From IMG/VR virus record IMGVR_UViG_3300028430_000741, positions 544-64,543 of that record: a DNA stretch of 64,000 nt. One strand, given 5' to 3'. Below, in pieces: positions 1 to 54,287 of the stretch. The DNA is from a virus. Lineage: Duplodnaviria; Caudoviricetes. Numbering within the stretch: position 1 is the stretch's first letter; each line of letters starts with the position of its first letter. Under the pieces are notes generated by a model that worked only from the letters and a program-made list of their open reading frames with translations, was not told the origin of the DNA and searched no databases. The position numbers were made by a program, and so were the translations under genes.

Positions 1-30
1 TAGGAATCCTTAGTTATCTGTTAATAATAA

Positions 31-339
31 CTATTTATCCTCGAAAAGTTTAGAAATCAAAGTAATCCCCACCGCGCAAATAATAGGCAGGATTAAGTTA
101 GACGGTTCGTTGATTCTCGCTATTGGTTCACTTGTTTTTAGAGTGCGATAAAAATCTAATGGCGTTACGCTGATCTGCCCCAATTTTCCCAATTCCTGTA
201 TGACACCATCGGGATGGGTAGGAAGCTTGTAGCAAACGCACTGAGTAGCATCTCGGTTAAAAAATTCGGTTAACGGTTGTTCGATTGGTTTCATGGCTTT
301 TTTGGGTAAAATGAGATTGTACTTGTCAAAAAAATTCAC
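31..339 (-). CDS. hypothetical protein with C-terminal hydrophobic segment
   Basis: 102-aa ORF ending in LILPIICAVGITLI; co-oriented with neighbours. Confidence 0.55.
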   Translation of the reverse strand: MNFFDKYNLILPKKAMKPIEQPLTEFFNRDATQCVCYKLPTHPDGVIQELGKLGQISVTPLDFYRTLKTSEPIARINEPSNLILPIICAVGITLISKLFEDK

Positions 340-387
340 CTTTTGGAAGGATTTGATTGATAGTGTGACTTTGTGGAGTTAAGGTTT

Positions 388-416
388 AAAACGAGCCGGT
401 GAGGTTCGTTTTTTTG
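388..416. terminator. probable intrinsic terminator hairpin
   Basis: aaaacgagcc-ggtga-ggttcgtttttttt hairpin flanked by A and T runs, just past the stop of the 422..1279 gene. Confidence 0.45.
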
Positions 417-15242: not shown

Positions 15243-16225
15243 TATAAGTACCCCTTAGAAACTGACCCAAAAAGGTTTGTTCCATCGCTAACAAAACTAA
15301 ATATGTCGACTGCGTTAGCGGCTGTTGATAATACAGGAGTTAGCGAAAATTTATAGGCAGAATTAAGAGTAAGCGTTCTATTTCCTGTGCCATCTTGTCT
15401 CACAATTAAAATATAGGTTCCGCCCGCCTGAATATTAGTAGGAGCGGCTAATGTTCTGTTACCTGCAAGCGTTACGGTTGCTACTTGTTGAGTGTTTAAA
15501 TTCCAGTTGATAGTTGCCCCGTCGGTTAGAGTAGCGAGGGGAAATCTTTGTTGAGTAGTGAAATTGTTAACAATCGCAAGCCTAGCGTAATTACTTTGTA
15601 AATCTGTAATAGTTGAGTTGATTTGTGCCTGTAGTTTTTGTAAAGCTGTCAATAAACTATCGGTAGCAGTAATCGCTGTATTTGTGCCTGTAGTCAAGCC
15701 TGTTAGAACAGTTGCTCTAACTTTGTCAAAAAAAGCAAAAAATCCTTTGTTGCCTGATTCTTTTCCATAAAAAGTATTGTCATTGGGATTGCCAGCAATA
15801 CTTTCCGCTTCATCTACGATGCCATCTTCATCCGTGTCATAAACCGAGCGATTCATGTCACCTGCGCTAAAGGTAGTCCACGCGCTACCGTTGTAAAACA
15901 GATCGCTCCCAGAGACAAGCGACACTTTTAATCCAGCAAAAGGCTCGTAAAATAGCCACGCTCCCGATACTGGTTGACCGTTCACGCCGATGGACGGGCA
16001 AGCGATCTGGTTGGTTTTTCCCGCCCACGCTCCCGACGCGCCAGCGGGAACGATGTAAAAAGAGTCAGCGGTTAGTCCACTTATCGGAGGCGTTGTTAAG
16101 GTTCGGGAAAGAATCGGGGCGCGCCCAACGCTGACAAGCCGGAATAACTCGTTTGCGACTTGCTCTTTATATTCCTGAGAAGAATTTAATAAAAGCCCGT
16201 TATTTCCCAATATTCTCGTAGTCAT
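15242..16225 (-). CDS. DUF2793-domain tail fibre protein
   Basis: YIVPAGASGAWAGK..QIA...W.F..P..G motif; C-terminal LTDGATINWN...QDGTG.RT...TAANAVD fibre domain. Confidence 0.75.
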   Translation of the reverse strand: MTTRILGNNGLLLNSSQEYKEQVANELFRLVSVGRAPILSRTLTTPPISGLTADSFYIVPAGASGAWAGKTNQIACPSIGVNGQPVSGAWLFYEPFAGLKVSLVSGSDLFYNGSAWTTFSAGDMNRSVYDTDEDGIVDEAESIAGNPNDNTFYGKESGNKGFFAFFDKVRATVLTGLTTGTNTAITATDSLLTALQKLQAQINSTITDLQSNYARLAIVNNFTTQQRFPLATLTDGATINWNLNTQQVATVTLAGNRTLAAPTNIQAGGTYILIVRQDGTGNRTLTLNSAYKFSLTPVLSTAANAVDIFSFVSDGTNLFGSVSKGYL

Positions 16226-19046
16226 CTCCGAACTCCTCGCGCATACATTTTTCTATCCAATCGGGATTACCGCAACAACGATTCAAGTAGTCCCAATAGC
16301 TTTTTACGTCATCTTTAGTATAGTTTGTCCCGAAAACTGCGTAAAGTTTCCAGAAAGCTTTAGGCCACCATTGCGATAGCTTATAAATTCTAACAATTTC
16401 GTAGCGCGCCCATTCTGGTTTTTTGCCCTTCTCGTAAGCTTCTCGTCTTGCCTGTCGATAAGCGTAGTAGAGGGTTTTGTCCTCGTCTGGAAGCATTAAC
16501 TGAAGCTTTTCGTTGGCAATCCGTTTTTCTGTTCGAGCGGAAGGAAACTCGAAACCGCACTCTGGACAAACACGAGCGGAGGCGTGAACCATGCACCCGC
16601 AATTTTCGCACTCTTTGACAGGAGATTCTCCCTTTTCTGTGTTTGATGCCTTCCGAAGATCGGGATAGGTCACGTCTTCGATAAACCTGTGACGCTTGGT
16701 ATTTCCTGCCTGATCTAAAACAAGGCAATCGGTTTTGTTAAGTTGAGGGCAGAGCCGTTGTCCTCGCCCCGTCATCTGGATATACAAAGTCATAGATTTT
16801 GTCGGACGGGAATGGATAATACAGCTAATTTCAGGCAGATTAAATCCGATTCCACAAGTATTGATATTGATAATCCCCCGCATTTTCAATTGCGCTACAT
16901 TTTTAAAAATCTCTTTTCGTTCCTCCTGTGGAGTTTCTGCGGTAATAACGGCGACGGGAATTCCTTGATCGGTAAATTCTTTAGCCAGCGAGTCCGCGTG
17001 AACTTTCCCTGCGGCAAAACACACGAATTGACGGTTTTGTCCGAGTCGCTTGTACTCGGAAACAATTGATTGTACCGCCTCTAAGCATCGAGTTTCGAGT
17101 TCCGCCGCATCAAAATCGCCACCCGTAGTTTTAACCCCTTTGGTGTCAATTTGGTTTTTGGTGGCAAAGTACACGCATCCCAATAAAGCTTTCCGCTCGA
17201 TCATCTCTTTCGGAGTCGGGCCGGTTACTTGCGTCTCGAAAATATCTCCTAACTCCTCCCGTTTTGACAATCGCCACGGGGTCGCCGTCAGTCCGATGAC
17301 GATCTGGCTGTCCATTGATAGTTCTTTCCCAGAAAATAAATGTTCTTGTTTCCTTAAAATCTCCCATGCAGAATTCAATTCTTGCATCTTCTTTTTACTT
17401 CCCCCGTGATCGGGGTGATGGAGTAATGTGAGAGATTTGTACTTTTGCTTTACTTCCTCGAAAGTGACTCGATACCCGAATTCTAGACTTTCTCTCTCGA
17501 TAGCGATGCCTAAAATAGCTAGTTCGGAACTAATATCTACTATCGAGGTTGTTTGTTTCCCGTCTTTGAGATTATTAAAATTATCTCGAAACCAAAGTGA
17601 ATAGGCGGAAAGATGGCACTCATCAAGAAATATTACTTCAGGATTAAACCAAGAAATATCTCGTCTTGCTAGTGTTTGTGTGGTGGCAATTTGTACTTTT
17701 TGCAAACGATCTTCTCTATAGTTTCCCGCTATAACTCCTGCGGTTAATCCGAATTTTTCAAGAGCGTCTAGAGTCTGGTCAATCAAGCATATAAACGGCA
17801 CGACGATCAGGGTGCGGCGGTGCTTTTTAATCGCTGCATCGTAAATCATCTGACAGAATAGGACAGTATTGTGGGTTACGGTAAAATCTCCTAGTAAAAA
17901 ACGGCGATTTCCGTCGATTGTAAACCCATAGTAATCATCTTCCTTCAAAAACTCTAGCTTGAAATTCGTTCTTAAAACATTGCATTTCTGTTTTTCTATG
18001 TATTCTTTCGGGGTTTTCTTGTATTCGGTCTTGATCGGGATAGTCTCTGTGTTGCCGCTAATTCTGACACGATAGTAAGTTTCTCCTTTTACTTCTTTGG
18101 TTCCTACACTTGCAAAAAAGCCTAAAGAGCGAGAGAGAAAAACAATTTGATCCGCAAGTTCTTTTCTTCTTTGCGCTATTTCGTAGCCTCCATTTATCTG
18201 CCAGTGTCCGTCCGTGTCAAGAAGTCCAGCGAGAAGTTCTAACCTGACTTCTCTTGAGTTGATTAGATAGTTTCGAGGGATATGCTTGTTTTCGATGAGA
18301 GATAAGTCTTTTATCATGTTTAGCAAATAATTTTTTCCTGGCCCCTTCTCTCCTGTTGTGATCCTATGAAGCTGAGAATTCGGATTGTCATTTCTTGCAT
18401 CAGAATAGACTTTCATCCCTAAACGATCAGCGTATTTCTTGATATAGTCGATCAATACAGGATTGGACGTGCAGACCCCCGTGTTCCTGTGATTGCCATC
18501 TCCTAGCCATATTCCAAGAAAGTAGGGGTCTATCGTGACAGGCTTGCTATCGAATTCTACAGGAACCCGATAGAGCAACATCGAGATTTGAATATGTTTC
18601 GGGAGAGAAAGATACTGATCAATAGAAAAATCGTAAATATTTCCGTTAATCCATCCTGATTTCGGGTAGCTTCTCCCATTATAAACTAGCGAAAGAATGT
18701 GACTACGATTGCAGGTAAACGGCTCTCCCTTGTTCGGGATTACCTTTACCATAGTTTCTCTTCCTCTACAGATTGAATCGACATGACGGGGCTTGCTGTC
18801 ATCCCCCATCAGAATATCCCCTACTGCAATATTTTGTGACAGCTTCACGCTACCGTCATACATAATAATTGGCGTATCTTTTGCTAGACACTTACCGTAG
18901 CCGCACGGTGCAACTACTAGCACGCGCTTGAATCCCGATCTAAGCTGATCATAAATCTCTTTTTTAAGAGCTTTTTGATCAGGGCGAAGTTGGATTGTCG
19001 GGGTCGGAATCCTAAAAGGTTGTTCTTGGAATAAAGTTAAATTCAT
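16200..19046 (-). CDS. SF2 DEAD/DEAH (RadD/YejH-like) helicase with intein and J-domain insertion
   Basis: APCGYGK/T Walker A split by the intein, DECH, GLTATP, QMTGRGQR, C-terminal CxxC-CxxC; start set at MNLTLF after the upstream gene stop. Confidence 0.9.
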   Translation of the reverse strand: MNLTLFQEQPFRIPTPTIQLRPDQKALKKEIYDQLRSGFKRVLVVAPCGYGKCLAKDTPIIMYDGSVKLSQNIAVGDILMGDDSKPRHVDSICRGRETMVKVIPNKGEPFTCNRSHILSLVYNGRSYPKSGWINGNIYDFSIDQYLSLPKHIQISMLLYRVPVEFDSKPVTIDPYFLGIWLGDGNHRNTGVCTSNPVLIDYIKKYADRLGMKVYSDARNDNPNSQLHRITTGEKGPGKNYLLNMIKDLSLIENKHIPRNYLINSREVRLELLAGLLDTDGHWQINGGYEIAQRRKELADQIVFLSRSLGFFASVGTKEVKGETYYRVRISGNTETIPIKTEYKKTPKEYIEKQKCNVLRTNFKLEFLKEDDYYGFTIDGNRRFLLGDFTVTHNTVLFCQMIYDAAIKKHRRTLIVVPFICLIDQTLDALEKFGLTAGVIAGNYREDRLQKVQIATTQTLARRDISWFNPEVIFLDECHLSAYSLWFRDNFNNLKDGKQTTSIVDISSELAILGIAIERESLEFGYRVTFEEVKQKYKSLTLLHHPDHGGSKKKMQELNSAWEILRKQEHLFSGKELSMDSQIVIGLTATPWRLSKREELGDIFETQVTGPTPKEMIERKALLGCVYFATKNQIDTKGVKTTGGDFDAAELETRCLEAVQSIVSEYKRLGQNRQFVCFAAGKVHADSLAKEFTDQGIPVAVITAETPQEERKEIFKNVAQLKMRGIININTCGIGFNLPEISCIIHSRPTKSMTLYIQMTGRGQRLCPQLNKTDCLVLDQAGNTKRHRFIEDVTYPDLRKASNTEKGESPVKECENCGCMVHASARVCPECGFEFPSARTEKRIANEKLQLMLPDEDKTLYYAYRQARREAYEKGKKPEWARYEIVRIYKLSQWWPKAFWKLYAVFGTNYTKDDVKSYWDYLNRCCGNPDWIEKCMREEFGDDYENIGK
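17868..18890 (-). mobile_element. intein with LAGLIDADG homing endonuclease (341 aa)
   Basis: Starts CLAKDTP, block B CNRSHIL, LGIWLGDG and LAGLLDTDG motifs, ends VTHN followed by Thr. Confidence 0.95.
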
Positions 19047-19051
19047 TTTGT

Positions 19052-19903
19052 TTATACTCCACAATGCCCTGCACATTCTTTTCCGAAGCCGTAATCGATT
19101 CCGAGGGGTATAGAGAGTTGTTCGATTACGGCTTCCTCTAGTGGCAAACACGACGAATGAACAAAAATATCTTGTCGGCATTTGCCAATAGTTACTAAAT
19201 GTTGAATTTTTTTGTCAACTTCTACAGCCCGAGCAAATTCATCGGGTTCTTCTTGCCTCATTCGCATCCATTCTTGTCGATGCTTAAACGGACAGAAGAA
19301 ACATGATGATTTTGATACGTTCCGATTTAGATGAAGGTAATTGTAAACGGCGCAATCGTTGCGATTCCACCCTAGATAAATAAGCGGGTGTTTGTTGTTG
19401 AGCCACTTATCTTGATTAATTTTCGCTCTTCTCTGTTCATCAACAGAAATTCCGAGCCAAAGTTTAGCGGTCAGGGGTGGGATTCTTTGACCTTTTTTGT
19501 ATCCCAGTCTGGCGCGGATTTCTTTTTGGATCGGCTTAATTTTAAATTCTTCGGTACACTGCCTTTTTAGCATTCCGACTTGACCATCTAACGACCTTGT
19601 AAACCATGGAATAGAAGCGAGTCCCCACCATTGCTCGTGAATTGGAATGATTGATCCATTTTTTTCAATGCGCTGAACTACTACCGTGTCATACTCGGCT
19701 CTTGACAGCATTTCAAATATTTGGTTAACGTGATCGTAAATCGCTTTCGGTTCCGCTCCTGTGTCGGCAAAAATAATTGTTTTCGGGAGAGTTAATCCAA
19801 GATCGAGTAGTTTGTGGGGTTCATGAATTAATAGAAGGGCTATAGCGGTTGACTGAACGCCGCCGCCAAAGGCAAAAAATGTTTTACTGTCTAGGTTTTG
19901 CAT
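19052..19903 (-). CDS. PAPS-reductase-like (PP-loop) protein
   Basis: FGGGVQS, FADTGAE, RQCTEEFKI.PI, KSSCFFCPF and C-terminal ECAGHC. Confidence 0.8.
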   Translation of the reverse strand: MQNLDSKTFFAFGGGVQSTAIALLLIHEPHKLLDLGLTLPKTIIFADTGAEPKAIYDHVNQIFEMLSRAEYDTVVVQRIEKNGSIIPIHEQWWGLASIPWFTRSLDGQVGMLKRQCTEEFKIKPIQKEIRARLGYKKGQRIPPLTAKLWLGISVDEQRRAKINQDKWLNNKHPLIYLGWNRNDCAVYNYLHLNRNVSKSSCFFCPFKHRQEWMRMRQEEPDEFARAVEVDKKIQHLVTIGKCRQDIFVHSSCLPLEEAVIEQLSIPLGIDYGFGKECAGHCGV

Positions 19904-21014: not shown

Positions 21015-21256
21015 GTAATTTCCGTAAAATCTTCCTTCCGAAAACAATAGAATTTGTGTCCCTTCCATTCGGGGAATTCGGGATCGACTGACTCGAAATG
21101 GTAATAGATTCCGAGTGCGGTTTTTATCGTTCCAATTGGTTTGCAAACTTTAAATGTTTGTCCGAAAGAATTCACTCGGTAACGGCGATCTGGATGGCGT
21201 GATTCACAATATTCTCCAATCATCGGGATCACGTCCCCACGTCGTTCACATAACAA
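21011..21256 (-). CDS. hypothetical protein
   Basis: ORF overlapping the primase stop; probable start MIGEYC. Confidence 0.5.
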   Translation of the reverse strand: MLCERRGDVIPMIGEYCESRHPDRRYRVNSFGQTFKVCKPIGTIKTALGIYYHFESVDPEFPEWKGHKFYCFRKEDFTEIT

Positions 21257-24054
21257 CTTCCGAACGGCAAACTAAACCGAGCCACAGCCTCACCTATTCG
21301 AGCTTCTGCTTCAATCAGCCAATTGCCGATCGTGTCGATGGTCACGCCCACGATTCGGGCGATCGTTCGGGTCGGAATAGTTCGCTCTCCCGTGTCTATC
21401 GGTTCTGCGGTTCGGATCAGAACTTCCTGCCGCTCAAAATTTGGCAAACTGTCAAGGTGTACACCATCAGCCGAGTATTCTTCGGGGCGGGGCGGTTCGG
21501 TCTTTTGCTCCGAAGCTAGAACAGTAAACTCTTCTTCCTCGAATACTATTTCTTCTACGGCGATCGCTTGTGGCTCTTGGAAGTGTAGAGTTTTTCCCTC
21601 AAGCCGTCCGTGTCCGGCTTTCTGCAATTGACTGAGTAGTTCAAGAGCGAGTCCAGAGTTCATCTTTTGCCCGTCAATCTTCCGGCTCTGAAATTTTTGG
21701 TGAACCTCGCGGGTCGTAATTTTGCCAAAAGTTCTCACGATTTCCCAGATTTCATGCAGAATACCCTGAATGGGATTCTGATCGTCGCCCCCGGTGATGC
21801 CCTGAATAGCGAGAAATTGGTTGATATAAAAATCGGTCACGGCGGCCGCTTTCGCTGCGGTCTGGACGGGGATTTTGTAAAGATCGGTGTGTTCGGGATC
21901 GTAAATCCAATTCAGCAAGTGGATGGTAATAGCAAACCGCAAAAACTCTTTCATCTGTTTCCCGATGTACGCCGTAAAAGCGGGGTTTTTGGCTCGATTT
22001 TGCTTAACGAGATTGTTGTAGCGGTGATTCACGTCCCATGCAAAAGTTTCGCCTTTCTCGGTAAACCAAAGATCGTAACGTTCGACACCGCTTTCCCCGA
22101 TTTCTAGCTCGATACCGCTTACCCGATTAAACGCTTCTAGTATCAAGTCCTCGACCGAGTTCTCGTCCATTGGCGGGCGACCGGGGACGGGATCGAGCGG
22201 TTCGTTGATCAAAAAATGAAACCGGGAAACTAGCCCATCCACATCATCGGAAAGATCGAGGTACTTCCGAAGTTTTCCGACTTGTATCCCCCCCAATATA
22301 TTAAGGGTTTGCCCGTTCATGCTGTACCGACTCTCGCGGTTTACGCGGTCAAAAGTGAATTGTAGCGGATCGTTCCAAGCCTCTAGTAATTTCTGGCGAT
22401 CACTTCCCTTTCCGCCGCTCTTGTACTGGTTCATCCCGTCAAATAGCCCGGTTAGTTCGTCGGCCAGCCATACCGAACCTTGCCACGGGGACTGCAAGGA
22501 AATCGATTTTAGAATTGCATCTAGGGTTCCATGATCGTAGACCCATCGTTTAGCCTTGCAGTGTTCTCGCTCGTAAAGGCGCGGGTTAACGCTAGGATTT
22601 GTGATGTTCTCCTTGCGTTCCTCGCGGGTCATTTCAGCCCATGAGGACTTTAAGTCTTCAAGGTGTACCTCTTCTTGATCCACTCGCATTTGCTCGACTT
22701 TATCCCGTTCCTTCAAAACGCGGTAAATCTGCTTCTGTGTCGTGGTTTTTCCGCCGCTCGGATAATCTACATCCGCCATGTAAAAGATTGGGGATTCTTT
22801 CCAACAATTCCTGGAGTTTCTCGCTGTGCGGAGATTGACAGCAAATCGAGAACCGAGGATTGCGCCCATGACCGGCCAGAGCGAATGCAGTAGTCGGATC
22901 GATGGCTGGTTGATCGTCTTAGCCCGTGAATCTAGAGCTTCGGCGAGGGGGCGGGGAACGATCTTGAATATATCGAGCTTGTCTTGCCGATAGTGATTAT
23001 TCTGGAGAAAGTCAGTTATTCCCGTGTCGATCCGTTCTGACTCTTCTAGTTCCCGTTCCCGTGCCTTTTTCAGTTCGCGAATATCGCTCGGTGTCTTGCC
23101 CGTGAGTTTTGCCCACTCATGTATCTTCGCTTCCCACTTAGTAAGGGTCAGGTGTTGTTCGATCGCTGCGTCAATGGCGGGGACGATATCCTCTAGGGAT
23201 AGCAGTTGCTCTGTGGGTTTGCTTTTAGGCTCCCTAACCCGTAATTCTTTCGGGGTATCGACTACACCCGCCAAGACTTGCTCTTTTGTGGCTTTTGTTT
23301 CCTCGATCCAATCGATTAAATCGCATCCTCCGGATTCGGGAAGATGATCCCACAATGGGGAATCGGGGTAGGCGTACAGGAAGCGAGCGTCGGGAAAATC
23401 TTGATAGATGCGCTGAACGTGCTTCACGCCAGGATTATCCCGGTCTGGGCAGAGAATTAGTTTCGCTCCCTTCAAAAATTCCGAGTGTGATGGTTGCCAT
23501 TTTCCCGCCCCGCCGAGGCTACAGGTGGCGACGAATCCCATCGCTTCTAACTTCTCTACCTTGTTCTCTCCCTCGACTACTAGAATCGGAGTTCCCACCC
23601 CGATCGCTTTCTTCAGTCGTTCGGCATGGTAAAGGGGAATCTCGCTGTAGTTAATGCCTTGCAGGTTCCAATTCCACGTTTTCCCGTTGTTTGTCGAGTG
23701 TTGCTGACGAATTTCTTTTTTCCATCGCCCGTCTTCTTGGTAATCCTTCCGGTACACTTGGACGATCGTGCCGTTGGCAAGCTTGGGATAGGCGTAGTAG
23801 GTGGTTTTCTCTTTCTTAAATTCTGAAAACTTCTTGTCACGCTTCAAATAGTAGATAGAATCGCCCGCGCTGTCGGTTTTTCCCGACTTCTCCCACCCCT
23901 CGCCGGGTTCCGCTCCTCGCTTGCAGACAGAGAGCAGATTTCCCTCATCCGATGTGAATCCGTAACAGTAATTTGTTTCGTTTCGATTCCCGCAGTGGGG
24001 GCAGGGTTGCAACTTGACGCGATTGTGTGTTATCATAGTATTCATAAGATACAT
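21229..24054 (-). CDS. primase-helicase: Zn finger, TOPRIM, DUF3987-like ATPase, C-terminal wHTH-like domain
   Basis: CPHCG, VVEGE, PDRDNPG (TOPRIM), PSGGKT, DELTGLF, FDRV, GGIQ, DGLVSRF. Confidence 0.85.
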   Translation of the reverse strand: MYLMNTMITHNRVKLQPCPHCGNRNETNYCYGFTSDEGNLLSVCKRGAEPGEGWEKSGKTDSAGDSIYYLKRDKKFSEFKKEKTTYYAYPKLANGTIVQVYRKDYQEDGRWKKEIRQQHSTNNGKTWNWNLQGINYSEIPLYHAERLKKAIGVGTPILVVEGENKVEKLEAMGFVATCSLGGAGKWQPSHSEFLKGAKLILCPDRDNPGVKHVQRIYQDFPDARFLYAYPDSPLWDHLPESGGCDLIDWIEETKATKEQVLAGVVDTPKELRVREPKSKPTEQLLSLEDIVPAIDAAIEQHLTLTKWEAKIHEWAKLTGKTPSDIRELKKARERELEESERIDTGITDFLQNNHYRQDKLDIFKIVPRPLAEALDSRAKTINQPSIRLLHSLWPVMGAILGSRFAVNLRTARNSRNCWKESPIFYMADVDYPSGGKTTTQKQIYRVLKERDKVEQMRVDQEEVHLEDLKSSWAEMTREERKENITNPSVNPRLYEREHCKAKRWVYDHGTLDAILKSISLQSPWQGSVWLADELTGLFDGMNQYKSGGKGSDRQKLLEAWNDPLQFTFDRVNRESRYSMNGQTLNILGGIQVGKLRKYLDLSDDVDGLVSRFHFLINEPLDPVPGRPPMDENSVEDLILEAFNRVSGIELEIGESGVERYDLWFTEKGETFAWDVNHRYNNLVKQNRAKNPAFTAYIGKQMKEFLRFAITIHLLNWIYDPEHTDLYKIPVQTAAKAAAVTDFYINQFLAIQGITGGDDQNPIQGILHEIWEIVRTFGKITTREVHQKFQSRKIDGQKMNSGLALELLSQLQKAGHGRLEGKTLHFQEPQAIAVEEIVFEEEEFTVLASEQKTEPPRPEEYSADGVHLDSLPNFERQEVLIRTAEPIDTGERTIPTRTIARIVGVTIDTIGNWLIEAEARIGEAVARFSLPFGSCYVNDVGT

Positions 24055-26431: not shown

Positions 26432-27436
26432 TTAGAAATCGTCCGAATCTTCAGAGACGGGGACAGTTTTTAGTAATCTGTCCTCGATCATTGCGTCTAC
26501 TTCTGCGCTGATTTCTGGATTGATTTTGTTGCCGACTACTTGTTCTGCGGTAAACGTAACTTTTCCTCCCGTGTCGGGATTACCGCTTTTATTTAACGCG
26601 GTAATTCTATCAAGAACAGCTATTTTTAGAGCGTCCTTATTTTTGCTGTTTTCTTTGTAAATTGATTCCGCCACAAAAGCGTCAACCCCTGCGTTTACTA
26701 ATGCTGTGACGTGAATATCTTTCCAGCATTTCCCCTTAGCTTTTTCGTCCTTGAAAGCATTGTGCTTTTTGAAAATATCTCTCGCAGTATCTGAACTCAT
26801 TCCCAATTCATTAACTGCGTAGTTCATCATTCGGGGAACCCATTCGGAAATATCGGGTTCGGTTCGAGGCTTGACTACTTCCACATTGATTGCGTCCCCG
26901 TTTTCGTTTACTTCTGCTCCTAGTTCGTCAAAGGAATAAACAGGCGCACCGAGGGCGAGATCGGGACAGAACTCGCGGAACCCATTAGAGATACACCGAG
27001 CGAAAAGCATATTCTTAGGAAACTTCTGCCAGTTTGGATTACTACCGAGTCCTGCGGTTTTTGCGTCCAGCATCGTGAACGAGGTCACGCCGAGCGATTC
27101 CCACTTGCCCTGTATTAACTCAAAAAATTCAATCTCGCACTTGTCAGCGTCGTGCAATAATTTTTTGTATCGATACTTACCTGACCCCTTAATTAGGGTA
27201 GCCATTAGGTTGGCACTAATAACAGGCTTGCCTTTAATGATATGAATTCCAGTCATCGAGGCAAAAGCGGGAATCCCCAACTCTTTCCCGGCAAGAACTT
27301 TTACAAAACATTGTGCCACTGATTGCGTATCAGTAAACAGCTTGGACTCTGCCATTAAAGACGCTAGTTTTTTCATGTCGTCAATCGTCTTTAACTCTAG
27401 CGGACTCGATGAAGCTTTAACAATTTCGCCTGACAT
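26432..27436 (-). CDS. RecT-like single-strand annealing protein
   Basis: GKELGI...IHIIKGKP...NWQKFPKNMLFAR...FCPD; acidic C-terminus. Confidence 0.75.
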   Translation of the reverse strand: MSGEIVKASSSPLELKTIDDMKKLASLMAESKLFTDTQSVAQCFVKVLAGKELGIPAFASMTGIHIIKGKPVISANLMATLIKGSGKYRYKKLLHDADKCEIEFFELIQGKWESLGVTSFTMLDAKTAGLGSNPNWQKFPKNMLFARCISNGFREFCPDLALGAPVYSFDELGAEVNENGDAINVEVVKPRTEPDISEWVPRMMNYAVNELGMSSDTARDIFKKHNAFKDEKAKGKCWKDIHVTALVNAGVDAFVAESIYKENSKNKDALKIAVLDRITALNKSGNPDTGGKVTFTAEQVVGNKINPEISAEVDAMIEDRLLKTVPVSEDSDDF

Positions 27437-31521: not shown

Positions 31522-31678
31522 ACTCGCTATTCTTCTGTATAGACCCCATCGCTAACCCGTTGCGGTAAATCGTGCAGAGATTCTCCTGTATTGTCCGATC
31601 TCCCCGGCACGACGGTAGTACCCCCCACACAATCGCCGCCACGATCATGATTACCACCGTTATTAATCCTTTGCTCAT
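31490..31678 (-). CDS. small membrane protein
   Basis: N-terminal TM segment; ATGA overlap with the TMP stop. Confidence 0.5.
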   Translation of the reverse strand: MSKGLITVVIMIVAAIVWGVLPSCRGDRTIQENLCTIYRNGLAMGSIQKNSEYEHVCYCANR

Positions 31679-34600
31679 CCAAAAAATCTCCGCTTTGTTC
31701 GCTCATTTTGGGCGTTCTCACGCTCTTTTAACTGAGTTAGGGAATATCCCATATCATTTCGTGATTCTATCGTAACATTGCTCACATTGGTGATCGAGAG
31801 GGATTGATTAGACGAATTATTGTTCGAGGTCGTAACGCTGTAGCCAGTTCCCCCGACAAATCCCCCGCTGGCGTAGTTTTTGATCGGGGCATTTTTGTAT
31901 TCCAGATAAGACTTGGCTTCGTTTGCGGGGATAACATATTCGTCTTCGTTGGCCACGATCAATCGGGGGTTTCTCCCTCCGCTCATAGACCGTTCACGCC
32001 GGAAGGCAGAAATCACATTTTTCTCTATCGGGGCATCGGCTCCGATTTTTCCGCCAGAACTAAAGAGGCTGAATCCCGTTCCTAGAGAAAAGTTAGATGC
32101 ACCCGTAAATGGGGTAGAGGCAATAGGCGAGCTAAATCCGCCGAGGGAACCAGTGAATAGGCTTATTGCTCCTCCTAGTAGCCCACCTCCTCCGCCGCCA
32201 GACGGGACTGGGGAAGATGCCCTCCCACTTCCTCCAAAAATTTGCATGAGCAACTGATTGGCCGCCATTTCCCCGATTTTCTGTAGAAAGCTGGTCAGAA
32301 CGTTCAGCATTTGCTGTAGGGTGTCCCGTCCCCCAGTGAACGCGGATCGGAGTAAATCCCCAAACGCTCCCACCGCAGGATTAGCCTCGATAAACGCGGA
32401 AGCGAGGTTAGCCTGTTGCATTTTGTCGAGGGCGGACGACATTTCAAATAACTGGGTAGGAGATAAAGCACCTTCTTGGGCATATCGCTGGAGTTCGAGG
32501 CGACGACGAGCGAAGTCTGCTTCTATGCGGAGCTTTTGCGCTTCTCCTGCACTGAAAAGCGTTCCGAGTGGGTTCATCCGATTCCCCGCGTCGATCCCGT
32601 CTGCAATTAGATTGTTGTAACGTTCGAGGGCGGCTACCCGCTCATCCTCGATCATTCGCATGGCGGCCGCTTCACCCCTGATCTGTCCATAGACGCTCAG
32701 TTGATTGTCGAGAGCTTTGTATCCTTCAAGAATAGCGGTGTTTCGTTTGTTTTCGGCTTCAAGAGCCTTGAATGCGTCATCGTTACCCGTGTCTTGAAAT
32801 AGCCGCGCCCGTGTTTCTTCCGAGTTTTTAGCGAAATCCGAGGTAAGTTGATCGAGCGATCGAATTTGGGACTGGATCGACTCTCGTTGTTTTTCGATCT
32901 CCCGGCTCCCATTGCGTCGGGCTTGTTCGATTTTTTCCGAAAAAGTGAGATAGCCCTTAGAGGAGCGCATTAGGTCAGTCGAGGTGTCTCCCGTGTCTCT
33001 CAATCCGATCTCGGCTTGAATTCGAGCCTCCTGTGTTTGTTGGATCAGTCCTGCGATCCGATCAAGGTTTTCCCGCCTTGCCCGTTCGAGTTTAAGTAGG
33101 TTTTCTTCTTTTTGATTCTGTAGGGTTTTCTCACGGGTAATCCGAATTTGAGTATCGAGTTCCCTAGCTCGATCGTAGTCAAAAGTTGGGAGCGGCGTGA
33201 GCGGGATGTTCGCTTGTGGTTGTCCCGTCAGCACACCAGAATATCTTCCGACGTTGCCAGCGTTGTAATTCGCTCTTTCTTCGGGAGTGAGAGGCTGAAG
33301 GTTCGGGTTGAGAACTTCCCGCGTAAAACCTTCCCAGTTTTTGTAGAGACCCGATCGCATTAGCAGGCGGTCAAACTCTTCTGACCCTGAAGTGCCGACT
33401 TGCTGAACTACCGAGGGGTGACGGATTTCGTCGGCGTTGACCGGCGATCGATAGCGCATCGTTTTGGGATCATAATTCGGGGAAGGATCGTATTTGTAAA
33501 TCCGCCCGTTGCCATAGTCAATGTAGTCTCCTCTCTGTAATGTTCGGGGATTGTTCGAAGTTCCCTGTCTGTATTGTTCGGAGCTTTCGCTATTGTTCGG
33601 AGCTTCCCCGATTGCTAGGGCTACATTCGGGACTTTTCCGCCCGCAATTTTTCCCGATTTAGCGAGTAGTTTCTTGGAATTCTCCAAAATTCCTGCCCAT
33701 ATTTCGTTAAGCGACTTAAATGTTAGTTGTTGCTGTGATAGTTCACGGACTATCTGGACTTGTTGCATCCAGAAATCCCGTAGCTGTTTTAAGCGGTTCC
33801 GTTCGGCATCGTAGATTTGCTCTTGAATGTCTCGTAATTGTCGAGCGAACTGGATTGACTGATCTCGAATGTCGAGCGGCCGTGTTCTCAGGCTATCCGC
33901 TTCGCCTTGAATCGAGGCTATTTCATCCCGATATTGTAGGATGAGGTCATCTAATTGCTTCTGTAGTGAGCTTACGCCAGGTGTGCGCCCAGAAAGCATC
34001 GACACCTGCAAGCGTTGGTTTTCGAGACTTCTTTGACTTGCTCGGAATTCGTTTTCCGCTTCGATGAGAGATCGTTGTAACCCACGGATCATGTCTCCGT
34101 AGGCTTCTTTAAACCCTCTTACCTCGCGGGCAGATTGAATCTGGTAATCCTCGATCGATACTCGGAGGTCAACTACCTGTCTTTGCAGTCCGGTGTAGTA
34201 ATCCTCAATGTCGGTTGTCTGGTCACGCAGGGATAATTTTGCTTGCTCGATCTGGAGTTGAATTCGAGCAATATTGGCTTTAACTTCGAGGGGATCGCCC
34301 TTGAGTGTCCCGACTAGCTTTGATTGCTCAAAAGCGAGTTGTTTGTAAAGTTTTGAGATCTCGATTAGTGTCTGGTCACGGGCGAAAGTCTTGACCTGAT
34401 TTGACGCGGTTCGAGCGGTCAGCCCGATCTGTTTATTGGTTGCCTCGATCTCGATCGCCGTAGTCGTATAGAACTCAACGAGATCGTTTTGCTGATCCCG
34501 TAAGGTTAAGCGTGTCCGGGCGATGTTCGTTTTAATTCGGGCAATATTTGAGCGAATTTGCAAGGGATCATCGACGTTTGCCGCCAGTCTTTCTTGTTCG

Positions 34601-37600
34601 ACTGCTAATTGCTTGTAAAGCTCCTCTAGGGATACCCGTGTTTCGGCAGGTTGTAACGAGCGAAGCTTGCCTGTCGGTGTGGAGGAGTAGAGCTTTTCCT
34701 GTTGTCCTGCGATTAGGATTTCGTTAGCCGCTTGTTTTTCGGACAGCTGACGGCGTTTCCGTTCGGTGATTATTTCCCGATTGATAGACTGAATTTCTTT
34801 CTCGGACTGTAAAATCTCTTGTCTAGTTGTGGCGTAAGTTTTCGCCATTTCTAGGATGTTTTTAAGGGCGGCGTTCGATTCGAGATCGCCCGAATTTTCG
34901 GACATGACCCGCTCGATCGCTTCCGGGGAAAGTAGATTCCTAGCGATCGCCTCGGAAAAATTCCCGACCCCTAATCGCTTAAGATCGTCCTTGAAGTAAG
35001 TGGACAGCGTTTTGTCAGCCGCCTCGGTAATACGACTACTTAGCTTCGCCCCGGTTTCCGACGCGGTTGTTTGAAGGGATGCAAATTTTTCTTTGGCTGT
35101 TTGTAGCGACTCTTCACGTACCTTGACGTTAAATTCGTACTCGTTGAGTTGTCCCGATGCGAACGCTAATTCGTTACCGATCTGTCGATTTAGTGATTGT
35201 CTGGCGTTAATAAAGTTTCGGTTTTCTTGGGCGTTAAGAGTTCGGTTAAAAGCGTACTGAAGTTTTTTGTACTCTTTTTCCTGATCTCTAAGGACATTGA
35301 GATAGTTCTGCTGTTCGGCTTTAAGTCCAGCGATAATTCCCTTGAGACGCTCCGATTTTGCCCCATAATTCTTAAGCGTACCCCCGCTTTTTTGATACTC
35401 TTCTTCTAGTGCTGCGAGCGCGGCTTCGGCGACCTGTAAATCCGCGGTGATGCGAGAACCGACCGATCCTAAGCGTCTATCGATCGCTTCCTGCTCTTGC
35501 TTCATTAATTCCTGTTCTCGCTCGTTCAGGCGCGCTACCGCCGCAAAATCCTCTTTATTTGCGGCGATTGCCCGTTCTGCCCGAACTTGAGCGAGCGAGT
35601 TCCGGAGACCTTGCAATGAGTCGATAAACTTATCGATCCCATCTGTGTCTGAAAGTACGGTTTGATAGGTTTTTAGGTTCGTCTCTAGCCCCTCTGCGCC
35701 TTCTCGGATGTTTTTGAGATTTTCTTGCTGGTCGCGAACAGCATTGTTTCGCTTAAAGGTGTAAACGGTTCCGACCGTCAGAACGTTAAAGAATTTCTCG
35801 GTTCCCGATAGGTTCATATCGGGGAAAAATTTATTCCAGAGATTTTTGTTTTCGTTTTCGGGTTCAATTTTCCCTAAATCCTCTAAAACTTTTCTCGATT
35901 CTTTGAGGGTTTGAAGCGAATTTTTAAGATTTGCGTCCCCGTTCTCGAAAATATCGTAAAACGTTTGAAGCGCAACGATCGTCGCCGCAGGAACGATCAT
36001 CGCTCCAATTGTTGCTTTTAGCACTCCGCCCGCTACTTTTGCCGTGGCAGACAACATTTGCATTTTGGTCGTTGTTTGCCCTGCGGTAACTCCCATCGCA
36101 AATAACGAGGCGTTGTAAGAAGCGATTAATCCTTGTCCTAGCCGAGTAGCGGCGGAAAATTGCAGTACCGATTTTCCGAGTAGTCCGATTGTGGCGATTA
36201 CCGCAGACGCGCTTACCGTCGCAACTAAGCCGAGATTGTCATTTAGTCCTTTTAGGAGAGTATTAAGTAGCTGTAGCGCGGGATAAGCCACAACGCCAAG
36301 TTTTTCCCCTGTGGACATCGATAATTGTTCGATATTGTTCTGATAGCGGTTCATTTCCGCCTGTAAAGTTTTGCTCGATGCACCGATTCCCCCCGCACTT
36401 AGGCGTTCGTACTCAGCCGCTAACCGGGGGATCACGTCCTGAGAAAGTAATTGCCCAGCCGACGCTTGCCGGTAGAATTCAGCGGTTGTCATCCCCATCG
36501 CACGCGCCGCAACAATCAGCGCGTCGTACAGTCCCCCAGACTCGGTTAATTGTTGGGTGAATTCTTCTACTGATAGCACCGAGCGGGCGGCCATTTGGTT
36601 GATCGCTCGGAATGTTTCAGTTTGCTGTTGTGGGTTAGTTTGCCGTACCGCAAGAGCAGATTGAAAACCCTCAAAAATGTCATCACCTTGAGCTTGTAGT
36701 GGTGAGCCAGTCGTCACGATCTGGAATTGGGCGTACTGTTTGGTTGATTCTCTGAACGAGATACCAAGTTCATCAGCCCGATTTCGCAGTCCGTCAATTG
36801 CCGTATCAACGTTGTTAACGCCAGCAATGTCGAGGTTGATCCTGATTTGCTGTAATTCGGTAAATGCGAGTAACGAATCCGTGACCGCTTGTTGTACTCG
36901 GAACGGCAAATCCTGAATTGCAAAAAACAAAGGCTCTAACAGGAATTCAGCAGTTTTGAATAGCGCAAATCCCCCGATGACCGCTAGTGATGCTTTGCGA
37001 AGGTTGATCATCCCACCAGTAGCGGCATCGAGTTCTTTGTCGAGAGTTCTGAGTGCCTTGCCGCCGACCGAGAGGAAATTGATAAATCCGTCAGCTTGGG
37101 CGATAGCGGTTTTAAGTCCAGTCACGATGCCGTCTGTAAAGCCACTAGAGACACCTGCTTTTTCAACGCTATCGAGGGCTTTAAAAATGTTGTCTCGTTT
37201 CTGATTCCAGTCTTCAAGAATTTTTTCCCTTGTCGATTTTTGGGGCTTTGCCGCTTTTAAAGTTTGATTTAAAAGAGATTCCTGTTTCTGTAAAATTGCT
37301 CTAGCTTTTTGAATATCTTCTAAGACTCTTTCAGCTTCTTTAGATACGTCAAACTTCTCTCTTTTAGGGGGTTCAGGTTCGGGACTAGCGGGCGACGCAA
37401 TACGAGGAGGTTTAGGGGGCTGATTTCCTCCTCCCCCTCCAGAAAGAGTTTGCCGATATATCGCTTGTTCTGCTTTTTGAACCAAACTAGCAAGATATTC
37501 TCCAAAAGAATAAGGCGATGCACCAAAAGCTGGAATAATTCGATTAGACGGGGCAGGGGCAGATATTCTCTGTTGTCGTTGATTTTCCCGCTCGGTTCGA

Positions 37601-40600
37601 ATAGATGGAGCAGGCGAGGAGGGTAGCAGGAGGGGTAAAGGTGGGGAAGCTTTAGGCAAGGATGGAGTAAACGGTTTAAACGTAAATCCCGCTAATCCTG
37701 CTTTGTCTATTCTTGCTTTAGCTTGTTCGGCTTCTTGTGCAATTTGACGAATTTGAACGCTGACATATTCAGCAGTAACTCTCCAATTTTTTCGGATATT
37801 CCACGTTGGGCCAGGTGAAGCTTCTGACAGACCCCTCTGAATATCTTTTGAATGTTTTTTTGCTTCTGTGGCTATTTCTTGAATATTTTCTCTAACAGAT
37901 TTTTCAGTTTTTTCCCAGTTATTTTCTATTGGTTTATTTGCGCTTCCAGTTGTAGCGGGGTTTATCGTTACCCCTTTAAAGGATTCTGTTTGGATAAATT
38001 GCTGTGCGTTGACAGGCATTCCACTTTGTAATTCTTTGATGACTTTAGTGGTTAACTCTTTTATCTTAGTGGTTAATCTACTTTCTTCTTTTTCAATGCC
38101 TATTCCTACACCCTGAATCAGATAACGCCCCGCTTTTTCCCCTTTCCAAGATGGCGATCTATTACCTAATTCATCATTTAACCCATCGATAATATTTCGT
38201 GCATTTTTTCTAACGATTTTTTCAGCATCGTTATCTTTTAATCCTTTGGTTAAACCTTCGCTAAGGTTTTTACCTGACTCCAACCCACCTTTAGCTAATT
38301 GAGGTACAATCTGTTTTAATTTGTCGTAAACAGCATCAGTAGCAGCTTTTGCTGTCATACCTTGCTCTTTAATTAATGTGATTGCTTCATTAATAATGCT
38401 TGAAACTGGACTAGCTGTATTTTTAAGTTGATCGAAAACTCTTAATGCCTGTTCTGCCTGTTCTGCAATTGCTTTATTTTCTTCTGTGTTAATTTGATTA
38501 CCCGCAGTTTTTAGTTTTGCGGCTTTTTTATCAGAAGTTAAAGAGCCAAATACCCTTTTATCGGTTGCTATACGATTTCTTAATGCGGACTGTACCTCAG
38601 CGCGAGTTAAAACATCTGTTTGCTGTGTCGTGGATGATCCAAATAAATCAAATTGTTCTACAGTATCAACTGTACTAGCGTTCAACGTATCAATTAACTC
38701 TGAAACTACTGATTCGGTTACTTTCTTTCCTTTTTTCTCGAAATTTTCAATTAATTTAACTAACTCTCTTTGCTGAAATTCCTTAAGTCCACTGCCGCCA
38801 ATCTGAACACCCCTAAGTTCAGATATATCTCCACTGGCGACACGATCAAACAACTCTTGTGGTAACTGAGCTAACGCAAGTCCTTGAGAAGCTACTCGAT
38901 CTCGCATTGGTATGCCAGCTTTTTTTAGCGATTCTTTGTCAGCTAAATTCATGTCTCGTAAAAACTTAGCTGCATCTATAGCTGTACCGCGTCCTTCTGC
39001 AATATTAATCATCGCCCCTTTAGCTCTAGCTTCTTGGGCTGACTGAGCATTCAACAGTCGTACAGTAATATCTTTAACGTTTAAATCTTTGGCTAAATTA
39101 AGCCTATTGTGTCCATTAACTACATAAACTTTCCCGTCTTCAGGATCGCGCCAAACACTGACAACTCCCGCTAAATCATCATCCCATTTACCAACACCAG
39201 ATAAAGAACCAGTCGATCCAGTTTTGCCGTGTACAAGTTTATACTGGAATCGTTCTGGATCAAGATTTAAGTCTGAGATCGGAAGTTTTTCTACAAAGCC
39301 AGGGGAAGTCGGGCTATTTTCTTGAGGAACCCTTTTTAACGGATTCGGAGTTTCAGTAACAGGTAAAGGAATATTCTCAGCCTGTAGATTGCTTGTAGAT
39401 GCAGGTAAAAGAATATTCTTAGATTGTATCTGACTTTTGGCATTAAGTAACAGATTGTTAATTGAGGTTACAAAGCCACTTAATGATTTATTAATACTTG
39501 TTGTATCAAATTCAGGGTTAGCTCTTATTAATGCAATACCCGTTTTAATTTTTTCTAATTGAGAAAAAAGAGTCTTTAAAGATTGAATATCTTTATTAGT
39601 ATTAATTTGTTGGGTAATGCTTTCTATGCCACTGCTAATTGTTTCAATAAAATCAGCGGGAATTTTTCTTGTTTCAATTTGGAATCCACTAAGTTCTTTT
39701 TTCCCTAATTTTGTTCTATCACTTGCTTTTGTTGTTAGTAAAAGTCGAGTTAGTTGGTCAGGGTTAAATTTTTCAATTAATGATTTCCATATTTCTTCTT
39801 TTCTGGCTCCTAGTCCCGATGCTGGTACATCAATTCCCTGATCTCTAGCTAATCCTCGTAATTGTTTTACCGTGTAATATTTTGGGTTAATTGCCTTGAT
39901 GTTAGCTGGAATAGGACTACTTACCGGGAAAGCTTTTTCGTCAAAATATGGGGTTATTTCAGTAGTAATTAAAGAACCGGCTTTATCTTTTGCGGCTTTT
40001 AAAAGTTTCTGGGTTTTACCTTCAATTTTTTGCTGTTCTTCTTTGTCAATTAATTTAGGGACGCTACTGGTAGCCGCCCCTAAAAGCTTCTTAACCCCTT
40101 CCCCCGCCATTAACGCCGATCCAGCGACCGCCCCCCCTTGCGCTAAGACGCTGATAGTGCCGTTGGTTAGTTCGGTAACAAGGTTCATTACCGCTTCCGT
40201 TAACTGTTGTCCCACTCCAAACGGCAAGCCGCTAAAAGCTTGAGTCATTTGTGTGGCTACGGCTTGGATCATTTCCCGACCGCCTGCACTCATTGCCCCC
40301 GCTAGAATGCTTCGCATCTCGTTAACGATTGTGGCATCTAACCCCATCGGGAGTGCGTGGAGAGCGGACGCTCCTATTGCGGCGGTTCCCCCTACCTGTA
40401 GTGCTTTTTTCCCCAGTCCCACACCGGGAATAGCCATAACGGGACGTTCGATCGCTTTTAGAACGGTGAAAACAATTTGACCGAACTTGACGACATCTAG
40501 AGAGGCATCCTTGAGAGCGTTTCCAAGTATTCTGCCCGCTTCTTTTACCTCTCTAATTAATACCTGATTTAACAGTTCTGAAATGTTTTCTTGCCCTGTT

Positions 40601-53061: not shown

Positions 53062-53679
53062 TTAACCCATAAGCTTCTCTTGGCTTAAAGTTTCAAGTTT
53101 GGGATAGGGAAGGGATAGCGGGGCGATCGCTTTTCGCATTTTGCGATCAAGAGGATATAGATAGCGATATTTCGATGATCCCTTGATAATTGTCACGTCG
53201 GGATGTTTTTCCATCCCCTTGTACTTATTCCGGAATGATCGACCTTGCCAGCGCTTTCCTTTATACAGATATTCGTCGCTCGCTTGAGAACGACCGCAGT
53301 AAATCCAATTCCCTGCCTGGTAGATAATCCCTAGATGCCCTTGCTCTGGATCGGCAAAAGAGACGATCAGCCTCAATCCGGGAGATTGCGACTTTAATAA
53401 ACTGATCGCCCTCGCCACGATCATAGTTACTGGCGATTCGTGCTGTCTGAGTGCTACACGCACCAATTCGCAGCACTCGGTAGATTTTAGCCCGTAGGGT
53501 TTTCCAAGGTTGTTGGTTGCCCCTACCCCAAAAATGACCGCACCGATAAATTTATCGTCTTCCCAGACTCCAATTTTGACCAATTTACTCTTAGGAATAC
53601 ACCGGGAATAGTGATAGTTTTCGCAAGCGTATTTTGCCGCATCGTGGCTACAAAATGCCACCTTTAAATCGGTCATCAT
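53062..53679 (-). CDS. Mom-like adenine-modifying GNAT-fold protein
   Basis: YHYS, ELVRVAL, LIVSFADPEQGHLGIIYQAGNW.Y.G and KYRYLYPL; start MMTDLK overlaps the ParB stop. Confidence 0.8.
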   Translation of the reverse strand: MMTDLKVAFCSHDAAKYACENYHYSRCIPKSKLVKIGVWEDDKFIGAVIFGVGATNNLGKPYGLKSTECCELVRVALRQHESPVTMIVARAISLLKSQSPGLRLIVSFADPEQGHLGIIYQAGNWIYCGRSQASDEYLYKGKRWQGRSFRNKYKGMEKHPDVTIIKGSSKYRYLYPLDRKMRKAIAPLSLPYPKLETLSQEKLMG

Positions 53680-54287
53680 TCGTTCACCCATGTATGCCCG
53701 CACTTCGGACACTCGATCGGTTTTTTCTGGTCTAGCCGGGGTTGTTCCTCATCGCTCGGATCGAAGTCTGGCGGTTCACCTTCCTCGCTATCTCCCGCGT
53801 TCAAGGTGGCGAGAATTGAATTTAAATCGCCCATCGCTTCTAAATTTTCCCCCTCGCTATCGAGATATTCTGCTTGTTCGAGTAGCAGATCGTGATCGAA
53901 TAATTTTAGCTCATCGATAGGATCGAGTCCTGCCCCGTGAATCGTAGAATGATTGTGCAAAATGGAGTATTTTACAGCTTTTCCCTCACTTTCCGCCTCT
54001 ACTCCTATCAAAACAGGCACTAACCATTCTCCGTCTTTATCGGTCAAAATTCCCCGCGGCGGCTTAATATTCCGTTTTTTGATTTCTAGTAAAGCCGCAC
54101 GGCGATCATGACCCTCTGTAATCCCTCCTTTCCCCTTATTAAGAGACGGGTCTATGCCTATCGGGTCTTTAAATCCAAATTCAAGAATCAGAGCGATCGT
54201 GTTTTCGGTCGCGTGCTTTTTGGAATTGCTTTTTAGCGGAACAAGATCGGAGAGGCGGCGATATTCGATCGCTAACTTATCTGGCAT
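53676..54287 (-). CDS. ParB/Srx-like N-terminal domain protein
   Basis: N.KKH, EFGFKDPI, ITEGHDRRAAL; C-terminal CPKCGH. Confidence 0.8.
   Translation of the reverse strand: MPDKLAIEYRRLSDLVPLKSNSKKHATENTIALILEFGFKDPIGIDPSLNKGKGGITEGHDRRAALLEIKKRNIKPPRGILTDKDGEWLVPVLIGVEAESEGKAVKYSILHNHSTIHGAGLDPIDELKLFDHDLLLEQAEYLDSEGENLEAMGDLNSILATLNAGDSEEGEPPDFDPSDEEQPRLDQKKPIECPKCGHTWVNE

Follow-up and report, generated by a model that had tools for sequence, protein, structure and literature searches.

The window analysed here is a stretch of 64,000 nucleotides (positions 544 to 64,543) of the IMG/VR virus record IMGVR_UViG_3300028430_000741, and on its minus strand lies a gene for a superfamily 2 (SF2) helicase that carries two additional elements: a DnaJ-type J-domain is inserted between helicase motifs II and III, and an intein, as judged by sequence criteria, interrupts the Walker A motif (Table 1). 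The record comprises 64,543 bp with a CheckV completeness of 100%, and the window covers nearly all of it. The source is an uncultured tailed phage; genes for a large terminase, for tail proteins, for an endolysin, and for a head-decoration protein are present in the record. The helicase and its insert were analyzed by profile searches, structure prediction, a survey of relatives, and a docking model with DnaK.

Table 1. Features of the helicase gene and of other genes in the window. Positions are those of the window; amino acids (aa) are numbered in the 993-aa open reading frame.
Feature	Position	Strand	Remarks
Helicase precursor gene	16200..19046	-	948 aa from Met46 of the 993-aa open reading frame 16200..19181; stop codon 16200-16202
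Walker A, N-terminal part GYGK, aa 94-97	18891..18902	-	expected to be completed after splicing by Thr439 (17865-17867)
Putative intein with LAGLIDADG homing endonuclease, Cys98..Asn438, 341 aa	17868..18890	-	Pfam and alignment with intein-free homologues
Helicase motif II, DECH, aa 520-523	17613..17624	-	D, E, and H invariant in the homologue alignment
Insert between motifs II and III, 106 aa, aa 524-629	17295..17612	-	short spacer in insert-free relatives
J-domain core, aa 547-617	17331..17543	-	Pfam DnaJ, predicted helices, Foldseek and phmmer matches to solved J-domains
HPD tripeptide, His589-Pro590-Asp591	17409..17417	-	in the predicted DnaK interface
Helicase motif III region, GLTATP, aa 630-635	17277..17294	-	G, T, and P invariant in the homologue alignment
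RecA-like domain 2, aa 712-809, including motif VI QMTGRGQR	16755..17048	-	Pfam Helicase_C, E 1.2e-15; Q, G, and R columns invariant
Four-cysteine zinc ribbon CxxC...CxxC, aa 858-875	16557..16610	-	weak Pfam zinc-ribbon matches (aa 851-881); Cys invariant or nearly so
Conserved helical C-terminal domain, aa 880-993	16203..16544	-	conserved W/F/Y/EFG columns; model helices 461-554 with high model confidence (pLDDT)
PAPS-reductase-like gene	19052-19903		upstream neighbour of the helicase gene
Primase-helicase gene	21229-24054		Pfam DUF3987
RecT-like annealase gene	26432-27436		
Mom-like gene overlapping a ParB-like gene	53062-54287	-	Pfam Mom, E 1.2e-44

The insert is a genuine, intact J-domain within a phage SF2 helicase. 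A preliminary description of this DNA, made by a model from the letters of the window, had noticed a peptide between DECH and GLTATP and read it as a J-domain bearing the His-Pro-Asp (HPD) tripeptide. The peptide is indeed present there, on the minus strand at aa 524-629 (the string ELAILGI starts at aa 553, 17505-17525), and its identification is borne out by Pfam, by phmmer matches including solved J-domains, and by a predicted four-helix J fold. The Pfam search which the description had proposed as a check was carried out on the whole protein, where DnaJ (PF00226) was matched at E 2.9e-6, and as a six-frame scan of the record, in which the match reached 32.4 bits (E 6.7e-9) and exceeded the cut-off of 27.8; no other J-domain was matched in the record. 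A phmmer search of 1.84 billion representatives, with only the 94-aa insert as query, yielded 368 proteins at E ≤ 0.001. PF00226 was detected in 21 of 25 matches scanned, the other four being two insert-bearing helicases and two proteins without a Pfam match. The HPD tripeptide is present in 145 of the 148 best phmmer matches that were readable, and the residues following this position are KGG in 49, RGG in 44, and HGG in 23 of these 148 matches (together 116).

A search of the Protein Data Bank (PDB) sequences with a 105-aa version of the insert yielded 31 distinct sequences at E ≤ 1, nearly all of them named DnaJ, Hsp40, or J-domain proteins or T antigens. The best match was the T-antigen J-domain of murine polyomavirus (1faf_A; E 3.7e-6, 30.2 bits), followed by DNAJA1, Thermus DnaJ2, Sis1, Tim14, and E. 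coli DnaJ. Of 38 aligned residues of the J core, about half are identical in 1faf_A, among them the HPD-x-GGS loop and a MQELNS-W stretch in helix III (compare 17409-17468 in the window). A special kinship with polyomavirus J-domains was considered and rejected, because small metagenomic J-proteins, which have the HPD-x-GG loop too, outscore the T antigen (up to 50 versus 30 bits). This short-loop subtype is so common in such proteins that the likeness to T antigens needs no common descent.

The AlphaFold2 model of aa 439-993, based on a 50-row alignment, reached a mean predicted local distance difference test (pLDDT) value of 89.1 and a predicted template modelling (TM) score of 0.80, with a pLDDT of 87-96 in the insert. 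In this model, helix I spans aa 547-556, helix II aa 574-588, helix III aa 596-611, and helix IV aa 613-617; an extra short helix is found at aa 563-566, and HPD lies in the loop between helices II and III. The insert was also modelled in isolation (pLDDT 69.1). In the Foldseek comparison of this model the top rows were solved J-domains (1faf, Tim14, Sis1, DNAJA1, Ydj1) with 1faf at rank 1, and named J-domains occupied ranks 1-6, 10, 11, and 13-15. In the 14 aligned HPD-bearing relatives, the aromatic-basic pair of helix II (Tyr581-Lys582) is retained as [YFH][KR]; this pair is essential in E. coli DnaJ.

The protein around the insert has a complete SF2 signature, i.e., Walker A (GYGK/T, read across the intein), DECH, TAT, QMTGRGQR, and two RecA-like domains. 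Pfam ResIII was matched with E 7.1e-12 (ResIII/DEAD, aa 439-538), and together with the Helicase_C match and the motif coordinates this bore out the preliminary description, which had put the insert between motif II and motif III of a phage SF2 helicase. All 50 entries listed in the structure comparison of the helicase model are SF2-type motors. The nearest solved relative is E. coli RadD, both by sequence (E 1.5e-18) and by fold (VIA Z 23.0, root-mean-square deviation 4.2, 305 residues aligned); the gene product is a RadD-like SF2 DNA helicase or translocase, RadD-like referring to its fold. Orthology with RadD was rejected since the NCBIfam equivalog NF053632 scored 98.5 bits against a cut-off of 720, and its match was confined to aa 190-423 of the 555-aa piece. 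Just 335 positions of the RadD chain (35..369) are paired with model range 1..408, which leaves room for an extra insert.

Translation most likely starts at Met46 (19046), because intein-free homologues begin there and the upstream gene extends to 19052. Codons 1 to 45 of the 993-aa open reading frame (19047-19181, minus strand) overlap the end of the phosphoadenosine phosphosulfate (PAPS)-reductase-like gene and have no counterpart in homologues. The element in Walker A is by sequence criteria an intein with putative splicing, as it matches Hom_end_hint (E 2e-19), Hom_end (E 9.6e-11), and LAGLIDADG_3 (E 6.8e-9) in Pfam. It splits the motif into GYGK, the element from Cys98 to His437-Asn438, and Thr439 as +1 residue; intein-free homologues read GK-T directly, and in the alignment the THN/TVLFCQ junction of the window lies opposite GKT-ILFCQ of the intein-free relative P0003 (P numbers denote surveyed relatives). 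After splicing, the mature helicase would comprise about 607 aa. The intein is also found in P0002, a 949-aa protein 95% identical to the window helicase, and it is lacking in P0003-P0006 (65-87% identical). For the distant family members P0096, P0097, and P0102, intein domains are given in precomputed Pfam lists. The preliminary description had not mentioned the intein.

Relatives were collected with the post-intein part as query; of 8000 candidates scored, 712 reached E ≤ 1e-5, and the best 120 of these were used. Together with the protein of the window itself and four proteins from the phmmer search with the 94-aa insert, 125 proteins were surveyed for the spacer between motifs II and III. 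This spacer has 106 aa in the window versus 17-45 aa in 78 insert-free relatives and 20-27 aa in 56 viral loci. A long insert of 90-114 aa is carried by 34 of the 125 proteins, 16 with HPD and 18 without it, and in the remaining 13 no motif pair was recognisable. Such a survey had likewise been proposed in the preliminary description; the insert proved to be recurrent, while HPD is absent from 18 of 34 inserts and has been lost at least four times, i.e., it is conserved in part of the family. Among 80 loci from IMG/VR viral contigs, 17 had a long insert without HPD (101 aa), one a long insert with HPD, 56 the short spacer, and six no motif pair. The 80 loci from GTDB species genomes comprised 74 with the short spacer, three with a long insert lacking HPD, three without motif pair, and none with an HPD-bearing insert. 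Metagenome contigs, among the 80 matches listed, gave at least 67 short spacers, at least two long inserts without HPD, none with HPD, and at least 11 cases without motif pair. A word-indexed search restricted to the insert returned five proteins, all previously found. In the viral loci without HPD, synteny with the window covers the primase, the helicase, and three downstream tail-type genes, and this indicates phages related to that of the window.

A maximum-likelihood tree of 37 rows was calculated with the insert columns excluded, using the 'quick' method with support from the Shimodaira-Hasegawa-like approximate likelihood ratio test (SH-aLRT) only. On this tree, 24 of 26 insert-bearing rows fall on one side of a branch with support of 89; the other two, P0036 and P0085, are on long branches among insert-free cyanobacterial rows. 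Judged from these sequences, the insert marks a phage-borne clade. HPD is kept on deep branches of the clade, at 37-47% identity, and was lost by different routes: by a deletion in the loop in the P0007-type group, by a His-to-Pro change in P0003, and by decay in P0031, P0033, and P0085. P0036 has an internal DnaJ domain scoring 37.9 bits. P0088 (617 aa) belongs to the same helicase family and has no internal insert; its DnaJ domain is located at the C-terminus (aa 560-608, 42 bits). That J-domains have been fused at two distinct points within a single helicase family speaks for a functional connection with Hsp70.

Constraint on the J core was compared with that on the remaining helicase. Divergence of the J core in 14 HPD-bearing relatives roughly keeps pace with that of the rest of the protein (for example 0.86/0.82, 0.73/0.74, 0.48/0.49, and 0.41/0.42 for J core/rest). 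In the HPD-less P0031 and P0033, identity of the J core is 0.18 and 0.16 versus 0.42 and 0.39 for the rest, and this decay suggests a function tied to HPD.

For docking, the 105-aa insert, with an alignment of 20 rows, was modelled together with E. coli DnaK 1-605 and ATP by ESMFold2. The docking score was 0.63 compared with 0.02 for the best of three controls; in the calibration, 116 of 157 solved complexes and two of 215 mismatched pairs attained the mark applied. Contact agreement between runs was at least 68% and partner pLDDT at least 64. On the side of the insert, the predicted interface consists of aa 578-586 (helix II), 589-593 (HPD loop, residues 62-66 of the 105-aa piece), and 596-607 (helix III), and on the side of DnaK of residues 208-215, 381-392 (linker region), 413-422, and 477-480, which we take to be the site contacted in the solved complex of DnaK with the DnaJ J-domain. 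The docking mode is a computed property, like the identity, position, and conservation of the domain, and the model points to a likeness to DnaK-binding J-domains rather than to binding by this copy.

The helicase gene ends a module which contains the genes for the DUF3987 primase-helicase and the RecT-like annealase. No phage-encoded Hsp70 was found in the virus record, so any Hsp70 partner of the J-helicase must be that of the host. When helicase and terminase were compared by tblastn with 50,697 phage records, no match above 60% identity was obtained; terminase relatives in GTDB genomes reach about 40% identity and are spread over unrelated phyla. Three close helicase loci in species genomes (L082-L084), all HPD-less, come from metagenome-assembled genomes labelled Flavobacteriaceae or Crocinitomicaceae. 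They may be binned phage contigs or a pointer to a non-cyanobacterial host; in L083, which was compared with the window, the same downstream tail-type genes are present. Distant insert-free relatives of the helicase are mostly cyanobacterial. The Mom-like gene and the PAPS-reductase-like gene hint at modification of the phage DNA. An open reading frame of 4,323 aa at 31675-44646 (minus strand) adjoins the tail genes and presumably encodes a giant tail or tape-measure-type protein, of which a weak relative occurs in locus L020.

We favor, with a probability of roughly 55%, the reading that the J-domain serves to recruit DnaK to an accessory helicase of recombination or replication; thereby it would probably bring the host chaperone to phage DNA transactions. 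A DUF3987 primase-helicase and a RecT-like annealase are already encoded by the phage, so the J-helicase probably acts in an accessory capacity, as a motor in recombination or replication restart. Once the intein has been excised from Walker A, the mature chain (about 607 aa) would display a complete class-C-type J-domain on the surface of RecA-like domain 1, in place of the short connector that links the motif II strand to the motif III strand. Helix II, the HPD loop, and helix III would dock on ATP-bound host DnaK at the junction of nucleotide-binding domain, linker, and substrate-binding domain. Docking would trigger ATP hydrolysis, and DnaK would clamp a protein adjacent to the helicase. 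In this way, DnaK could be used to remodel or clear nucleoprotein complexes, be it the helicase's own partners, filaments of single-stranded DNA-binding protein or annealase, or host roadblocks. That a phage SF2 helicase recruits host DnaK had been proposed in the preliminary description; HPD, the Tyr-Lys pair of helix II, and the canonical J surfaces lying on DnaK in the model agree with it, the retention of HPD-less inserts does not, and we infer DnaK binding, stimulation of its ATPase, and the identity of the clients.

Several results weigh against recruitment of DnaK. On the whole protein, Pfam DnaJ matched aa 572-613 with E 2.9e-6 and 27.7 bits, i.e., 0.1 bit below the cut-off of 27.8, and the Foldseek search with the isolated-insert model gave nothing at E ≤ 0.001 (best E 0.041, probability 1.00, TM score 0.48/0.61). 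The docking pass may reflect model memory, because a like complex has been solved (5nro was among the chains matched); E. coli DnaK served as a stand-in for the host chaperone, and the job differs from the calibration in using its own alignment and including ATP. On the tree, the HPD-less state needs six changes, at least four of them forced by well-supported branches. P0003, the sister of the window protein and its closest intein-free relative (619 aa, 87% identical), has Pro-Pro-Asp for His-Pro-Asp by a single change, which could be a real loss or a sequencing error. In the P0007-type lineage the HPD-less insert is 63-65% identical to the J core of the window, about the same as the rest of the protein. 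Its ratio of nonsynonymous to synonymous differences (pN/pS), calculated from a codon alignment of 20 loci with 190 non-independent pairs, is 0.09 and indicates purifying selection, versus 0.065-0.21 elsewhere in the gene. A match to PF00226 was absent from all four HPD-less virus records searched, two of this lineage being 91% and 100% complete according to CheckV. Purifying selection on the HPD-less insert and the lack of another J-domain there imply that the insert has a value without canonical DnaK activation in that lineage. The repeated loss of HPD, the selection on the remaining insert, and the missing compensating J-domain favor an exapted J-fold which now serves as a structural or partner-binding module, such as a wedge or an oligomerisation or docking surface, and in which HPD is dispensable and a leftover in this phage. 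We consider such an exaptation, the main rival of DnaK recruitment, unlikely for the window protein, as HPD, the [YFH][KR] pair of helix II, and the helix III pattern are kept in the window and on deep branches down to 31-48% identity, and as the decay of the J core to 16-18% identity in two long-HPD-less lineages suggests HPD-linked constraint. The independent C-terminal fusion in P0088 and a docking model that passes its controls speak against it as well.

Recruitment of DnaK could also serve the helicase itself, that is its folding, splicing, assembly, or solubility, instead of acting on other proteins at the DNA. A 948-aa precursor must splice an intein out of its P-loop, the J-domain is located inside the ATPase core, and the J-domains of class C J-proteins generally act on whatever is adjacent. 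Such cis-chaperoning is nevertheless improbable. Intein-free relatives retain an HPD J-domain (e.g., P0005, which is 73% identical to the window helicase, P0006, and P0021-P0030), so help in splicing cannot be the general reason; the related helicases of the same size with a short spacer (78 of 125) manage without the insert, and we know of no well-known precedent for a tethered J-domain that permanently targets its own polypeptide. A role in host takeover or counter-defence, in which the J-domain would titrate or redirect DnaK, either raising the heat-shock response or blunting a DnaJ/DnaK-dependent defence, with the helicase as mere carrier, can refer to the phage J-protein Rki, which is described as hijacking DnaK and stabilising sigma-32 (PMC3486835), and to the mediation by DnaJ of phage sensing by bNACHT25, in work cited in PMC12619734. 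Effector-type phage J-proteins are usually stand-alone. The J-domain studied here is embedded in the ATPase core of one helicase family, and the second fusion is at the C-terminus of the same family, which argues for a helicase-linked role rather than a free-standing effector and makes host takeover very improbable.

Beyond DnaK recruitment by this one protein, we tentatively propose a broader view that is possible but rather doubtful. The family would have been wired to Hsp70 repeatedly, by the internal J-domain and by the C-terminal J-domain in P0088. If active, the protein would be a chaperone-coupled DNA motor that carries DnaK by its translocation to protein-DNA complexes, which DnaK then strips or remodels, and an independently arisen counterpart of large T antigen in a bacterial virus. 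As the insert lies between motif II, responsible for ATP hydrolysis, and the coupling motif III, docking of DnaK might perhaps be gated by the nucleotide state of the helicase.

Remodelling of replication complexes depends on host DnaK and DnaJ in phages such as lambda, and in polyomaviruses the replicative helicase itself contains a J-domain. Provided that its J-domain is active, the phage helicase studied here would be a compact system for studying how Hsp70 is aimed at nucleoprotein complexes, with HPD-plus and HPD-minus orthologues as natural comparison set, and a second case of a virus-driven fusion of chaperone trigger and DNA motor. If it is inactive, it would be a clear example of a J-fold co-opted for another role.

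In the literature searched we found no description of a J-domain inside a phage helicase; the J-protein survey of Barriot et al. (2020), known via citing papers, could list one. Phage J-proteins as such are on record: a 2026 review which summarises that survey counts J-protein genes in 137 phage genomes with 49 unique sequences, and 48 class C proteins without other known domain (PMC13254874), jumbo phages sporadically encode DnaJ-domain co-chaperones (PMC7824862), and large aquatic phages encode homologues of both DnaJ and DnaK (PMC12619734). Rki, encoded by gene 057w of the T4-related phage RB43, is presented as the first functional phage J-domain protein and, like the window helicase, has a class C J-domain with HPD; it is a stand-alone protein of 237 aa with an N-terminal J-domain and an orphan C-terminus, and it acts on sigma-32 stability, whereas the J-domain of the window is internal to a helicase (PMC3486835). 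The DNA polymerases of HMO-2011-type phages offer a precedent for a DnaJ piece inserted between domains of a phage replication enzyme. In that case it is the cysteine-rich CXXCXGXG zinc-finger part of DnaJ, without HPD and, as far as PMC9038755 describes it, without a known DnaK-activating role.

E. coli RadD (YejH; PDB 6jde, 7r7j, 8h5y, and 8h5z), an SF2 DNA repair helicase-like protein, has the same order of parts as the window helicase, namely two RecA-like domains, a zinc-binding element, and a C-terminal domain, but neither J-domain nor intein. The large T antigens of polyomaviruses (SV40, murine polyomavirus) resemble the window helicase in another respect, since they too combine a viral HPD J-domain with the short HPD-x-GG loop and a DNA helicase in one chain. 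In large T antigen, an N-terminal J-domain is followed by an origin-binding domain and a superfamily 3 (SF3; AAA+) helicase, whereas the phage protein is an SF2 RadD-like helicase with an internal J-domain and without origin-binding domain. Membership in the large T antigen family was therefore rejected: the helicase is SF2 and not SF3, the J-domain is internal, and no other Pfam domain fits. The comparison with SV40 large T antigen drawn in the preliminary description is apt as an analogy, the best solved match being a polyomavirus T-antigen J-domain, and by this analogy the J-helicase would be a functional counterpart of polyomavirus large T antigen and of the use of host DnaJ and DnaK by lambda.

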